In this document: piece after piece, positions 7,071 to 52,987 of the stretch
How positions within the stretch are numbered: position 1 is the first letter of the stretch
How the letters are laid out: every line of letters begins with the position of its first letter
Assembly: GCA_964016885.1 (NCBI GenBank)
Contig: OZ024741.1
Coordinates: forward strand, 190,712,001-190,776,000
Length of the DNA stretch: 64,000 nucleotides
DNA from: Eledone cirrhosa
Taxonomy: Eukaryota
Direction: 5' to 3'
Notes under the pieces: model-generated
What the model was told of the DNA's origin: nothing
Databases searched by the model: none
The model's input: the letters and a program-made list of their open reading frames with translations, nothing else
Made by a program: the position numbers and the translations under genes

Positions 7071-7400
7071 AGATTTTGAGTTTATGTTGGTTGTATACCA
7101 ACACCTCAGTATGCAGGCTGGAGCACTCGACGAAGTGCGCAGGTTGGTTTGGTTACTCCGGAGTAGTGTAAAATAAAGTTAAATAAAAGTCAAATGATTA
7201 AAATTTAGCTTCGTTTATTACTGCTATATATATTTCAGTGACAGCCACCTTTGGCTGTGACCTCTTCAGGCAGTTCGAATTAGATACTAATTCGAACTGC
7301 CTGAAGAGGTCACAGCCAAAGATGGCTGTCACTGAAATATATATAGCAGTAATAAACGAAGCTAAATTTTAATCATTTGACTTTTATTTAACTTTATTTT
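7071..7400. mobile_element. Short PLE pLTR fold-back (palindrome ~7170-7400, centre ~7285)
   Basis: Near-perfect inverted repeat with an HHR and AATAAA in each arm; (TA)n on both sides. Confidence 0.8.
7296..7350 (+). ncRNA. Type I hammerhead ribozyme (mirror copy 7220-7274 on -)
   Basis: ACTGC-CTGAAGA-GGTCACAGCC(AAAGAT)GGCTGTCACT-GAAA-TATATA-TA-GCAGT, followed by AATAAA. Confidence 0.8.
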
Positions 7401-9567: not shown

Positions 9568-10774
9568 AGGTGAGTTTTATTGTAGCACAATAAAGCAATG
9601 CAAATATCGGATAAGTAGCAGTCACAGTTTATAGGACTGGAGTATAAATAATATAAGATCAAAAGATGGTTAAAAGAGTTCCATGTATTTTATTATGGCA
9701 TTTCAAAAACAAATATCATCATGGGATGACATTTGCGTTCTCATCAGATAAAATAGGGAGACATGTTATGAAGCTTAAAAAACACTTGCGAGCAGTGAAG
9801 TGTTAAATCAACATATGAAAAATAAAGTAAGATGGATATATGAGATTGGGAAAAAAAAGAAGAGGGGGAGGGGAAAGAAAAGGTAAGGAAGAGGAAGAAA
9901 GAAAATAAAGGATGACAGGAGAGGAGTATAAGAAGGAAGGATGAGAGAGGAGGAGAAATGAGTGAGAGAGAAATAGAGATAGCCTTTAAAACTGAGAAAA
10001 CACTGTCTGACAGAGAGAAATAAAAAAAAAACCGTTGTAAGATAATAGATAATAGATAATTTTAAAAGATTTTGAAATTAAAAGTTAATGAGGTTTATGA
10101 ATGGTGATGTTTATGATTAAATAAAAAGGAATTAAGAATAGTATTTATTTAAGGTTTATATATTGAAGGGTTTAATAATATGTGCGAAAAAAGAATTTAT
10201 TAATACGTATTATTAAAATTAAAATATTGAGAATATAATGTGAATGAAGGAGAGATTAAATGAATTATGAACTTAGAGGAATTAGTTAGGGTTTAAGTTT
10301 GTTTTTATGTATTGTAATATGTAAAAGTAAATAAAAGGTTTAATACGAGCACGAAAGGAGAGAAGAAAGAAGAAAGAAGAAAGAAGAAAGAAGAAAGAAG
10401 AAAGAAGAAAATTTAAGAAAGAAAAAAAATATATAACGTCAAAAAATATATATGTTTACAAAATTTACTAATGGTAATATTAGTATATATTAAAAATATA
10501 GTTTGTATGGCCAAGAATATAAAGAAAAAAGGAAAAAGCTATAGTGAGTAATAATATGAATTAAGAAGTAATTGAGAAGTAAAAGTTACAGATTAAAGAT
10601 TAGAAATTAAAAAAGAAAAAAGGAAGAAAGGAAAAAGGATAAAAAAGAAGAAAGATAGGGGACCGCTAACGACATAGAATGAGTAAATTGTATAATATAA
10701 TATACTGAAATAAGGTATAAAGGTGGGTATATTTGCAAAATATATAACAGCGTTTGAGAAAAGAAGATTTTAAA

Positions 10775-11245
10775 CTAATTAGGTATTGAGATATTAGCTG
10801 TATACTTTATGGAAAGTTCTATGGGATTTATGCAAGCAGAGCGAAAATAATCCGTACGTCTATTTATTATAGAATTAAAATTAGAGATAATGGTAAATTT
10901 CTCGGCTAGGCAGAGATTACATGTTTTGGATAGGGAAGAATTCTGGTAAGGAAAGGCGTTGTAAACCTTCCTCCAAGATATGTTGTAGTTAATATTTTTG
11001 TCTTTTAAGGACCATATGAGTTCCGAGAGTGCCGTGTTAGTTCTTTTAAGTTGGTATTTAAAAGATGAATTGTGATTATAAAATCTTGCTTTAAAGGAAA
11101 TGGAAGTGGAACCAAAATAGGTAAAAGAATTAGTACCAGTTATAACCTTACATTCATACACTAAATTTTTATCAAGACATTGGTTATTAAGAGGACATTT
11201 AGTTCTAACAGGGAAAAACATGTGCGTCAAAACATGGCGTCCCAC
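10775..11245 (-). pseudogene. PLE GIY-YIG endonuclease domain (5'-truncated)
   Basis: KCPLNNQCLDKNLVYECKV...TYFGSTSISFKARFYNHNSSF...TALSELIWSLKD...CNLCLAEKFTII...INRR. Confidence 0.85.
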
Positions 11246-11967
11246 CCTCTTCCGATACTGCCAATATATAGTAATAATAATAAATGTGAAAACTAAAATC
11301 CAAAGAGGGCTTGATAAAGATAAATATATATCAAATATATAAGAACCCTAGATCAAATATTTATTAAAATAACAGATTAAAGTTTAAGCAAAGAATCGCT
11401 GCTTTCACCCTTAACAGGATCTTCTGAAACTTAAATCTCTAAGTTCATAATTCATTTAACTAATTCCTCTAAGTTCATAATTCATTTAATCTCTCCTTCA
11501 TTCACATTATATCCTTAATATTTTAATTTTAATAATACATATTAATAAATTCTTTTTTTCGCACATATTATTAAACCCTTCAATATATAAACCTTAAATA
11601 AATACTATTCTTAATTCCTTTTTATTTAATCATAAACCTCATTAACTTTTAATTTCAAAATCTTTTAAAATTATCTATTATCTATTATCTTACAACGGTT
11701 TTTTTAAATTTCTCTCTGTGAAACAGTGTTTTCTCAGTTTTAAAGGCTATCTCTCTCTCTCACTCATTTCTCCTCCTCTCTCATCCTTCCTTCTTATACT
11801 TTTCCCCTGTCATCCTTTATTTTCTTTCTTCCCCTTCCTTACCTTTTCCTGCCCCCACTCCTCTTTTTTTCCCCCAATCTCATATATCCATCTTACTTTA
11901 TTTTTCATATGTTGATTTAACACTTCACTGCTCGCAAGTGTTTTTTAAGCTTCATATCATGTCTCCC

Positions 11968-49690: not shown

Positions 49691-51299
49691 CAGTACAAAT
49701 TTAGGAAAATTAGGAAAAATGCGGTTTTAGGTATTTTTAATAAAGTTAGGGTAATGAAAATTTAACTACTCATAGAACCTATAATGAGGCATTTAATGAT
49801 ACAATCATATTTAAAAAAAAATAACAAGGAAATAACTCATGAAGAAAAATCAATATTTTTAAAACGCAAAAGTTTACAAAACATTTTATATTTATCGCTT
49901 TTTTTCAAGAAAATTCTTAAATTTTCAGATTTAAAATTCTGTAGAATGTTCTAGATTAGGTTTAAGGTAACTTCTAAGGACTATTAAAAACATTACGTCA
50001 TTATTTGTCTGACAACCATCCTGTAAACATTGACAACCGTCCTGTAAACATTGACAATATGGGGAAAAATAAACTGATTGATCAAGATCTCTGTAAACGC
50101 ATTGTAGACCTTCATACAAATTGTGTTGGTTATAGAAAGATATCTTGGCAGTTAAATGTGCCATTGAGTTCAGTTGGTACTATAATTTGTCACTGGAAAT
50201 CTCATCATTTCATCTGTCCTCTAATTAGTTCTGGTCGTCCTAGAAAGATAACGAAATGTGCAGCTCGGTTATTGACGAGAAAGGTTGGCAACGAACCCCG
50301 GTGTACTCTTAAAAATCTTCAGGATGACCTAGAAGGAAGTGGAGTAAAAGTGAGCACAGATACAATTAGTCGTTCACTTCATCGATATAATATCTTCTCG
50401 AGGTCTCTAAGGAAAACACCACTTCTTACGAGGAAACACATTCTTCGTCGATTAAACTTTGTAAATGAGCATCTCATCAAACCTGCGTCATTTTGGGAAG
50501 ATGTACTTTGGTCGGACGAAACAAAAATTAAACTTTTTGGTCGAAATGCTGTGGCAAAAGTCTGGAGAAAGAAAGGTACTGAATATTCACCGAAGAATAC
50601 TATTCCAACTGTAAAATTTGGAGGTGGATCAATCATGGTCTGGGGTTGCTTTAGTGCCACAGGTGTAGGAAATATTGAAATAATAGAAGGAAGAATGGGT
50701 GGCGTTTATTATAGAGGTATTTTGCAAAGGAATTTACATCAAAGTGCACATTCTCTCAGCTTAAAGCCAGGCTGGTTTTTTCAACAAGATAACGATCCAA
50801 AGCATACTGCAAAGCTAACACAATCTTGATTAAGTATGAATGGAATAAATGTTCTAAAATGGCCAAGTCAGTTTCCAGATCTTAACCTGATCGAAAATTT
50901 GTGGAGAGAACTGAAACTCAGAATTCAAAAAAAGGAAATCCCAAAATATCCCTGAACTAAAGAAAATTTGTTGTGAAGAATGGATAAATATTAGCCAAGA
51001 AACATGCAAGAAGTTTGTAGGAGGCTACTCTGTACACCTACAGGCTGTAATTAGCAGCAAAGGTTACGCTACGAAATATTAAGAGATGATTTAATAAATG
51101 TGTTGTAAACTTTTGCGTTATAAAAATATTGATTTTTCTTCATGAGTTATTTCCTTGTTATTTAAAAAAATATATGATTGTATCATTAGATGCCTCATTA
51201 TATGTTCTATCAGTAGTTAAATTTTCATTACCCTAACTTTATTAAAAATACCTAAAACCGCATTTTTTTTAATGTGTTGTAAACTTTTGTGGGGCACTG
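49691..51299 (+). mobile_element. Tc1-family DNA transposon with long IR/DR-type terminal repeats and TA target duplication
   Basis: TA|CAGT...ACTG|TA ends; ~165-bp inverted repeat (~49716-49881 vs ~51103-51267); direct repeat AATGTGTTGTAAACTTTTG twice in the right TIR; left tip degenerate. Confidence 0.9.
50059..51082 (+). pseudogene. Tc1 transposase with premature TGA (50827-50829) and a frameshift near 50935
   Basis: [54 protein letters not shown]. Confidence 0.9.
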
Positions 51300-51451: not shown

Positions 51452-51501
<50 letters not shown>

Positions 51502-51792
51502 TCAAAACAAATAACGAAACGAAATTAAATTTCGTTTCGCTTCTAACTCACTTTTGTATGACTGACGCTTAAACAATTAAGTTAAAGTGTACATCTACAT
51601 ATGTATACGGAAGTATTAGTATGCATATAAATACACACATGTATACATATGTACATGTACTCAGCTTTTCACTAGACACTTTACAGTGAGTGTCAGCTAG
51701 TCTGTATGTAACCACACAGGCGGACCGGGTTTTAGAGTCATACGAGTTTTCAAGGAAACACATTTCCTCTATTCTCCAGAGGGCCAGACAGG

Positions 51793-51837
51793 AATATTGG
51801 ACTAGTTTCGATGTTATTACATCTCATCAGCAATATT
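51793..51837 (-). ncRNA. Minimal type I hammerhead ribozyme, copy 1
   Basis: Minus strand: AATATTG-CTGATGA-GATG(TAATAA)CATC-GAAA-CTAG-TC-CAATATT; canonical core, 7-bp stem I, GUC triplet. Confidence 0.9.
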
Positions 51838-51883
51838 TACCCATCTTCCGGCTTCTCTGGAGAATTGTAAAAGCACATATCGT

Positions 51884-51943
51884 TATATGCTTTTTCTATG
51901 AAAATTAGTAGTGGGTAGACTAACTTGCATAGAACGTGAGTCA
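51884..51943 (-). promoter_or_regulatory. Putative promoter module: TGACTCA, ATGCAAGT (51923-51930), TAATTTTCATAGAAAAAGCATATA (51884-51907); repeated at +469
   Basis: Homologous in order and spacing to 21335-21394. Confidence 0.5.
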
Positions 51944-52261
51944 TTGTACGCACCGGTTCAGCGGAAACGATAAAAACAAATAACGAAACGAAATTAAATT
52001 TCGTTTCGCTTCTAACTCACTTTTGTATGACTGACGCTTAAACAATTAAGTTAAAGTGTACATCTACATATGTATACGGAAGTATTAGTATGCATATAAA
52101 TACACACATGTATACATATGTACATGTACTCAGCTTTTCACTAGACACTTTACAGTGAGTGTCAGCTAGTCTGTATGTAACCACACAGGCGGACCGGGTT
52201 TTAGAGTCATACGAGTTTTCAAGGAAACACATTTCCTCTATTCTCCAGAGGGCCAGACAGG

Positions 52262-52306
52262 AATATTGGACTAGTTTCGATGTTATTACATCTCATCAGC
52301 AATATT
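52262..52306 (-). ncRNA. Minimal type I hammerhead ribozyme, copy 2
   Basis: Identical to 51793-51837. Confidence 0.9.
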
Positions 52307-52659
52307 TACCCATCTTCCGGCTTCTCTGGAGAATTGTAAAAGCACATATCGTTATATGCTTTTTCTATGAAAATTAGTAGTGGGTAGACTAACTTGCATA
52401 GAACGTGAGTCATTGTACGCACCGGTTCAGCGGAAACGATAAAAACAAATAACGAAACGAAATTAAATTTCGTTTCGCTTCTAACTCACTTTTGTATGAC
52501 TGACGCTTAAACAATTAAGTTAAAGTGTACATCTACATATGTATACGGAAGTATTAGTATGCATATAAATACACACATGTATACATATGTACATGTACTC
52601 AGCTTTTCACTAGACACTTTACAGTGAGTGTCAGCTAGTCTGTATGTAACCATATATAT

Positions 52660-52987
52660 CATCATTTTATGTCTGCTTTTCCCTGCTTGCAAGGGTGGGA
52701 CGGGAACTGATTTGGCTTGATTTCTACAGCTGGATACCCTTCCTAACACCAACCTCATTTACAGTGAGTGCTGGGTGCTTTTTTGCTGTGGCACCTCCAC
52801 GACCACTTTGCAGTGGAATGATATGGACCCCAGTCCCTATCATCTCATTTCTACAGCTGAGTAAACTGGAGCAATGTGAAATAAAGTGTCTTGCACAAGG
52901 AAACAACACATCACCCGGTCTGAGAATTGAACTCACAACCTTTCGATTGCAAGGCTAATGCTCTAACCACTAAACCATGTGCTTCCA
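52660..52987 (-). mobile_element. SINE family 2 (tRNA head, CORE-like domain, RTE-like tail); near-identical copies at 61541-61853 and 63257-63599
   Basis: Head TGG(C/T)TTAGTGGTTAGAGCA...G(A)GTTCAATTC, CORE-like block, (ATG)n tail; the copies give the same spurious ORF. Confidence 0.85.

Follow-up and report, generated by a model that had tools for sequence, protein, structure and literature searches.

A hammerhead array of exact 469-bp units

The window, a stretch of 64,000 nucleotides of the Eledone cirrhosa genome (contig OZ024741.1, positions 190,712,001 to 190,776,000 of the forward strand), carries at 51504..52652 on the minus strand a retrozyme insertion that consists of one arm of 2.45 identical 469-bp units, the RNA sense corresponding to the minus strand. 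TRF reports this array with a period of 469, 2.4 copies and 100% matches, and the 469-bp periodicity is exact over 1,149 bp, without a mismatch. The monomer has a G+C content of 37% and contains no ORF, the longest stop-to-stop frame of the circularised monomer being 84 aa. Both the ~2.45 identical head-to-tail units and the lack of a credible ORF had been claimed in the initial annotation of the window, and both claims hold. Read as insertion ends, position 51504 is the 3' end of the array and corresponds to a fixed site (site A, see below), and position 52652 is its variable 5' end, at monomer phase 211. The target is a (TA)n microsatellite (51457..51499), at the end of which lies the left copy of a 12-bp target site duplication (TSD; 51492..51503, plus strand, ATATATATCATC); the right copy is located at 52652..52663 and shares its first base with the element. 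A perfect 12-bp inverted repeat, able to form a hairpin, is found close to the 3' end (51515..51539).

Each full unit encodes a type I hammerhead on the minus strand (AATATTG-CTGATGA-GATGT/ACATC-GAAA-CTAG-TC-CAATATT), located at 51793..51837 and, 469 nt away, at 52262..52306, with predicted cuts at 51800|51799 and 52269|52268, exactly where they had been placed before. Stem I has 7 bp. Stem II comprises 5 bp (GAUGU/ACAUC), one more than the GATG/CATC first read, and the palindrome recognised in stem III as CTAG extends over six nucleotides (A-CUAG-U). Computed energies (homoduplex -4.8 kcal/mol, closure within a monomer at a cost of ~5.9 kcal/mol) make this palindromic stem unfavourable in a monomer and paired in a dimer, the same arrangement as that given for canonical animal type I motifs in the accessible part of Cervera and de la Pena 2014 (PMC4209133). 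The description as a canonical minimal hammerhead is apt as regards a canonical, newt-like type I motif; it does not extend to the 'min-HHR' class as presented in the same part of that paper. The proposed Rfam comparison gave a mixed outcome: Hammerhead_HH9 aligned to both motifs with 31.8 bits (E 1e-5), below its cut-off of 52, and no Rfam family matched at gathering score anywhere in the window. Matches to Rfam miRNA families, also below cut-off, were rejected as AT-repeat noise.

The two cuts delimit a predicted 469-nt monomer (51800..52268, minus strand) with a branched fold of -159 kcal/mol (z -10.8), which none of 100 shuffled sequences equalled; subfamily consensuses folded as circles gave z values of -9 to -13 (20 shuffles each). 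Exact copies of the ribozyme number 3,041 in a whole-genome pattern count, versus 0 for a control pattern, and together with the fold this shows that the hammerhead array is not a chance occurrence. In 12 aligned sequences, 97% of the hammerhead stem cells are paired, the cleavage triplet is GUC or GUU in 11, and a compensatory A-U to U-A double change in stem II is present in four, which probably represents one event. Covariation over the whole monomer is weak (3 double changes, 14 compatible, 9 broken and 6 gapped pairs versus three subfamily consensuses), and substitutions avoid paired sites (27 of 59 paired, versus 40.8 expected).

A dispersed family with two fixed ends

Comparison of the monomer with its own genome gave at least 299 matches from the 37 scored of 607 candidates, the full-length ones being 98-100% identical. 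These matches, the 3,041 exact ribozymes and the family ends counted next dispose of the condition under which the first reading would have failed, namely a monomer unique to this locus through local duplication or artefact. The tail of the element occurs next to TA in 1,071 reverse and 2,085 forward matches of a whole-genome pattern count; as the forward matches are mostly counted twice, the number of family ends in (TA)n is estimated at about 2,100. The 139 distinct full units group into 11 clusters. The window's subfamily differs by 0.6% from its own consensus, and three other subfamilies, about 90% identical to it, by 1.3-1.5% from theirs. Related sequence was found in sequencing runs of three other organisms, one of which contains a sister subfamily (~94%) with the same TA-joined end. 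In each of two runs, which may be of DNA or RNA, a contig of ~497-499 nt wraps the monomer; these contigs were rejected as evidence of expression, since tandem DNA gives the same. A run that is presumably of RNA gave no contig. An array of at least 45 units of the young subfamily, at 127,664,841 to at least 127,688,160 on contig C1 of genome G000, is a candidate source locus. Four pairs of loci (L046/L047, L164/L165, L144/L145 and L096/L097) represent the same insertion twice, as a segmental duplicate or haplotig; the insertion shared by L046 and L047 has 1.6 units in one and 4.6 in the other.

In the genome search set, each of the 35 other loci has an end at site A (monomer phase 466-1) or at site B (phase 66-73), and the 20 loci with two complete inverted arms all combine an A with a B end. 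Since this set favours long copies, a second sample was anchored on site A, comprising 71 loci from the first 92 Mb of contig C1; two already analysed loci were left out, and one duplicate and five that ran off the fetched DNA or into a gap were dropped, leaving 65 resolved. Fifty of these are A+B (39 with a long B arm, 11 with a B arm of few bases), in four the second arm has another end point, 11 have a single arm and none is A+A; by its design the sample cannot show B+B. Of two short B arms that were re-read, one ends near phase 76. Sites A and B lie about 70 nt apart and the second arms are inverted. In the window, the interval between site A (phase 467-1) and site B (phase 66-73, at 51569-51576) corresponds to a Penelope-type 'tail' at 51504..51576 on the minus strand, which is repeated in units 2 and 3 (51973-52045 and 52442-52514). 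No part of the unit is better conserved across four subfamilies than the tail, where 3 of 88 sites are variable versus 56 of 329 elsewhere (p 5e-4); the 12-bp hairpin described above lies within it. TSDs of 12-14 bp were found in the window and at L043, L052, L096 and L143; they are clear at 5 of the 14 loci with readable flanks, the others showing TA runs or no TSD. The TSD, the Penelope-type end anatomy and the A>G record described below had escaped the initial annotation.

Sixty-one of 102 arms reach a length of one unit or more, their inner ends spread over all phases, and arm lengths show a roughly geometric drop over the first units (102, 61, 32, 9) with a heavy tail beyond. These 102 arms cross the ribozyme cut site 153 times, and only five of them end within 3 nt of it, versus 1.5 expected (p 0.02, in an interval chosen after seeing the data). 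Because arms often cross the cut and few end there, cut linear monomers contribute little, if anything, as templates; what is copied is a circle or an uncut multimer. Reverse transcriptase (RT) run-off at the cut was likewise rejected as the main route: apart from the weak excess of arm ends, it has eight genome-wide matches in the young subfamily, nearly all inside continuing arrays, and one clear junction, which is explained by stem I microhomology. Mixed bases at the cleavage nucleotide (hammerhead position 17) occur at 5 of 74 loci (nominal p 0.007), ranking 12th of 469 columns. At L180, L037, L181 and L203, units differ at this nucleotide, possibly through ligation-scar errors, and the pattern is not significant after correction.

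Judged by its sequence, the element is a young member of the animal non-LTR retrozymes, in line with the recently inserted, non-autonomous retroelement first proposed. Its units are short, tandem, non-coding and low in G+C, without LTR or ORF (469 bp, 37%, 84 aa); two consecutive units carry a complete type I hammerhead, albeit one below the Rfam gathering score; and the family is dispersed and multi-copy with TSDs longer than 4 bp. Similar traits are listed for animal retrozymes (coral, mussel, axolotl and newt satellite 2) in the accessible text of Cervera and de la Pena 2020 (PMC7229834): non-coding tandem units below 45% GC, one type I hammerhead with a palindromic helix III per unit, TSDs above 4 bp, and dispersed dimers to multimers. 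The monomer is slightly longer than the 150-450 bp quoted there, and circles and cleavage were shown for those elements and are predicted for the present one. The same text treats the copying of circles into tandem cDNA and a Penelope-like element (PLE) partner as hypotheses, mentions editing as a possibility, and in the part available does not describe the A/B end rule or the A>G record found here. Plant LTR retrozymes are also non-autonomous, ribozyme-processed and circular as RNA, the circle being a prediction in the present case, but differ in their type III ribozyme, LTRs, 4-bp TSD and Gypsy partner, according to the accessible parts of PMC7229834 and Li, Clavereau and Pollet 2026 (bioRxiv 10.64898/2026.07.22.740005). 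The type I motif, tandem units and 12-bp TSD in the window set the element apart from that group.

A strand-specific A>G record

Variants were scored in RNA sense, that of the ribozyme strand, at 117 loci, after 13 duplicate or re-fetched identifiers had been dropped; a 'private' variant mostly means one private among these loci. Variants confined to one locus comprise 100 A>G versus 54 T>C (p 1e-4), or 72 versus 53 (p 0.07) without one locus, and G>A and C>T are balanced (79:71). Divided by their distribution over the units, private variants found in a single unit show no such bias (A>G:T>C 32:38 among 404), those in all covering units do (25:5 among 49, with 10 A>G from L174), and so do those shared by part of the units (31:4 among 82, mostly from M138). 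The bias of the array-wide over the single-unit class is significant (p 8e-4), also without L174 (15:5, p 0.02). At M138, a unit with 28 clustered A>G alternates with a lightly edited unit in both arms. This pattern is found at no other locus genome-wide, and neither is that of L174. The L208 pattern has 70 matches at seven loci and is inherited, so that its edits could not be kept as private; L208 itself has two arms, together 19 units, which over 8.9 kb show one further difference. Altogether, four patterns were checked genome-wide, of which two are confined to one locus and two occur at seven loci each, which means that part of the array-wide class is inherited.

The window itself carries one such change, an A>G relative to the subfamily consensus at a recurrent editing-type site in a hairpin stem, present in unit 1 (51924, minus strand) and unit 2 (52393, minus strand). 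Genome-wide it has 12 exact matches versus 759 for the unedited form, distributed over seven loci and four haplotype backgrounds, on all of which most copies are without it. It is present in 13 of 13 covering units, including 2/2, 3/3 and 4/4 at the multi-unit loci; such runs are not expected if units were edited independently at 1.6%. The neighbouring site shows array-wide A>G in four subfamilies. ADAR is the established enzyme of A-to-I editing, and its neighbour preference is only mildly reflected here (5' G at 2 of 28 edits versus 27 of 146 A). Because DNA mutation and RT errors arise per unit and are strand-balanced in this family, the array-wide A>G changes are read as A-to-I editing of one monomer that was copied repeatedly. 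Being strand-specific, these marks indirectly point to an RNA stage and to the transcribed strand.

In arms of 1-2 units later duplication cannot act. This cleanest class (60 arms) contains no shared A>G, and its single-unit variants comprise 4 A>G versus 10 T>C, so that it gives no positive support. Arms of 2-4 units share 24 variants other than A>G (11 by all units, 13 by some) versus 162 in single units. Arrays also change after insertion, as the unit numbers of L046 and L047, the 82 partly shared variants and L059, where four of five units carry the variant of the locus, demonstrate.

Template, partner enzyme and neighbouring repeats

PLE integration is poorly understood. As far as accessible, Craig et al. 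2021 (PMC8557442) name as hallmarks of PLE copies their partial tandem arrangement, an arm in inverted orientation and a tail that need not be present; in vitro work places the tail between two internal RT start sites and shows cleavage and extension of both DNA strands, with a dimer predicted (Frangieh et al. 2024, PMC11167929). The retrozyme insertions display two fixed 3' ends that delimit a tail, an inverted 5'-truncated arm, partial tandems, and targeting of (TA)n microsatellites with variable TSDs, and sites A and B fit the PLE structure and the two RT start sites of its tail. Similar to EN+ PLEs, in particular of the Hydra clade, partial tandems and inverted 5'-truncated arms are combined with an optional tail between two start sites, (TA)n targeting and a hammerhead upstream of the start sites, as far as PMC8557442 is accessible and according to PMC11167929; the retrozyme differs in having no ORF, the RT plus GIY-YIG frame of an autonomous PLE being absent from the monomer, and a tail of about 70 nt instead of 30-40. 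The two start sites are divided between the two ends of the genomic products, whereas the in vitro assay revealed no difference between the strands (PMC11167929). A link to PLEs and co-occurrence with them are also reported by Li et al. 2026, whose evidence, in the accessible text, draws on 35 genomes (31 vertebrates, three insects and one coral, no mollusc) and consists of pLTR similarity besides this co-occurrence, and who discuss local tandem amplification as well as trans-mobilisation. The link drawn here is based on insertion anatomy; in eight flanking stretches with PLE pieces, the monomer had no pLTR homologue and only simple repeats in common.

PLEs in the retrozyme flanks carry the Hydra-clade motifs RWK or RWI, DKT and CxCX5C, as given in the accessible part of PMC8557442. 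Their Atlas neighbours have HTH_animal in 28-84% of members, none of six PLE frames matched in Pfam, and among named homologues of a PLE protein of this genome, one from Argonauta hians ranks best (37% identity). Two PLE families near retrozyme loci have pairs of fixed ends of their own, 87 bp (family X) and 160 bp (family Y) apart. Family Y, whose two ends delimit a tail, is as young as the retrozyme (96-99% identity), and family X, at L039, is old, its best other copies reaching 86-93%. The family Y copy at L067:366-3690 (G000:C4, about 124.20 Mb; 2,672 search candidates, Hydra clade) has an interrupted ORF and a ribozyme-like core that is atypical, lacking one base of CUGANGA. A variant-ribozyme pattern used to search for an autonomous parent gave 12 matches, all of them copies of the retrozyme family. 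As TA-targeting Hydra and Naiad families are both listed from Octopus in the supplement of Craig et al. 2021 (PMC8557442, as far as accessible), the partner PLE could belong to either clade. Two candidate two-template insertions were rejected, that at L039 since family X is old there, and that at L051 as an inverted duplication of neighbouring DNA: at L051:775-4081 the adjacent PLE is duplicated in inverted orientation (1.1 kb, 99.4%) with the retrozyme arm at the centre, which suggests a template switch to neighbouring DNA during insertion. At L035:2655-2750 the inner end of the A arm directly abuts another hammerhead-like repeat, at its 3' end and in inverted orientation, a possible two-template event that was not counted as evidence.

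The best reading of these data, and a likely one, is that ADAR-edited circles were copied repeatedly by a PLE reverse transcriptase. Genomic arrays would be transcribed from the ribozyme strand, and pairs of hammerheads would cut the multimer into ~469-nt monomers that are closed, or held by stem I, as circles, by analogy with known retrozymes. Host ADAR may then edit some A in stems. A putative PLE-like RT/GIY-YIG protein would bind the conserved 70-nt tail, cut (TA)n with a 12-14-nt stagger, and use the two DNA ends as primers for cDNA, one at site A and the other usually at site B. Both RTs would make several turns on one and the same monomer, passing over the ribozyme cut, and joining of their cDNAs would produce the inverted arms. 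The products would be no different if the circle were nicked, held by stem I, and the RT passed the nick by exact template jumps. The copy in the window, with its one arm, would have arisen from 2.45 turns that started at site A, the template bearing one A>G; its 2.45 units could also be 1.45 units and one later duplication. In a more comprehensive reading, towards which we lean with less assurance, the family would preserve in the genome, like fossils, the traces of rolling-circle reverse transcription acting on ADAR-edited ribozyme circles: edits would serve as molecule barcodes, all units of both arms would derive from one monomer (M138 possibly from one dimeric circle), a PLE-like protein would prime both ends of the target at two fixed sites on a single RNA, and edited copies would found new sub-lineages, host editing thereby driving the evolution of the element.

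The same PLE enzyme might instead use a linear, uncut multimer of a long source array, with shared variants inherited or duplicated soon after insertion and the ribozyme a passenger. Uncut RNA is indeed the dominant substrate of the anole PLE in vitro, where ribozyme cleavage is dispensable (PMC11167929); arrays of at least 45 units exist as possible templates, edited haplotypes are inherited across loci, copy numbers change after insertion with partial sharing, and arms of 1-2 units share no A>G. We nevertheless regard this route as rather unlikely, as it predicts fresh A>G in single units, where the ratio of 32:38 reveals no excess, and needs the window's A>G to have become array-wide separately on four haplotypes. 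Duplication would moreover have spread ordinary mutations too, and with 24 shared versus 162 single variants other than A>G in the 2-4-unit arms it would have to follow insertion almost at once. A satellite model, as in the accessible text of Li et al. 2026, in which a PLE inserts a single pLTR-derived unit and arrays grow by unequal crossover, accounts for the unequal unit numbers of L046 and L047, the mosaic long arrays L031, L210 and M138, and the heavy tail of arm lengths. It is hard to reconcile with 61 of 102 arms of at least one unit, inner ends over all phases and a roughly geometric drop, or with the 19 nearly identical units of L208; it explains long arrays, not the origin of the multimers, and as a full account it is very improbable.

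Mobilisation by a LINE, in the manner of a SINE, or as DNA (Helitron, extrachromosomal DNA circles) is about equally improbable. LINE-type RT fragments are common in the flanks and LINE twin priming also gives inversions; yet the element lacks a poly(A) or repeat tail, its two fixed internal ends pair as A+B, and the strand-specific A>G requires an RNA stage. That the 100% identity of the window's units stems from local duplication or an assembly artefact can practically be dismissed, given the target duplication, about 2,100 independent ends in several subfamilies, and related sequence in the runs of three other organisms.

Two steps of the retrozyme life cycle, the circle as transposition template and the supply of the enzyme by PLEs, are still hypotheses in the literature (PMC7229834 and Li et al. 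2026, as far as accessible). With about 2,100 young insertions, fixed A/B ends and heritable barcodes, both questions become testable from one genome, and the barcode test is applicable to retrozymes in any animal with ADAR. The family also defines a cis element of ~70 nt that may suffice to make a non-coding RNA a PLE substrate. The kind of element is already known; the value of this family lies in the A/B end rule and the editing barcodes, which open the proposed mechanism of circle and PLE to a direct test. In the open-access literature we found no cephalopod retrozyme, no paper relating retrozymes to ADAR and no genomic barcode evidence for the copying of circles; the giant squid genome paper, in its accessible part, only counts 235 Hammerhead_1 matches.

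Other repeat-like features were noticed in the window and at further loci. A 283-aa open frame at 49978-50826 (plus strand), 680 bp to its left, presumably resembles a Tc1/mariner transposase. Overlapping hammerhead-like cores on opposite strands at 7269 (minus) and 7301 (plus) belong to another repeat family, which is also present in the flanks of L031 and L035. A further hammerhead-like family, whose palindromic region at stem III is longer, forms inverted pairs in TA tracts at L068:8530, L069:5896-7644 and L067:5804. A GIY-YIG-like fragment at 10778-11347 (minus strand), accompanied by hammerhead-like motifs at 9747 (minus) and 11976 (plus), resembles family Z of L068.
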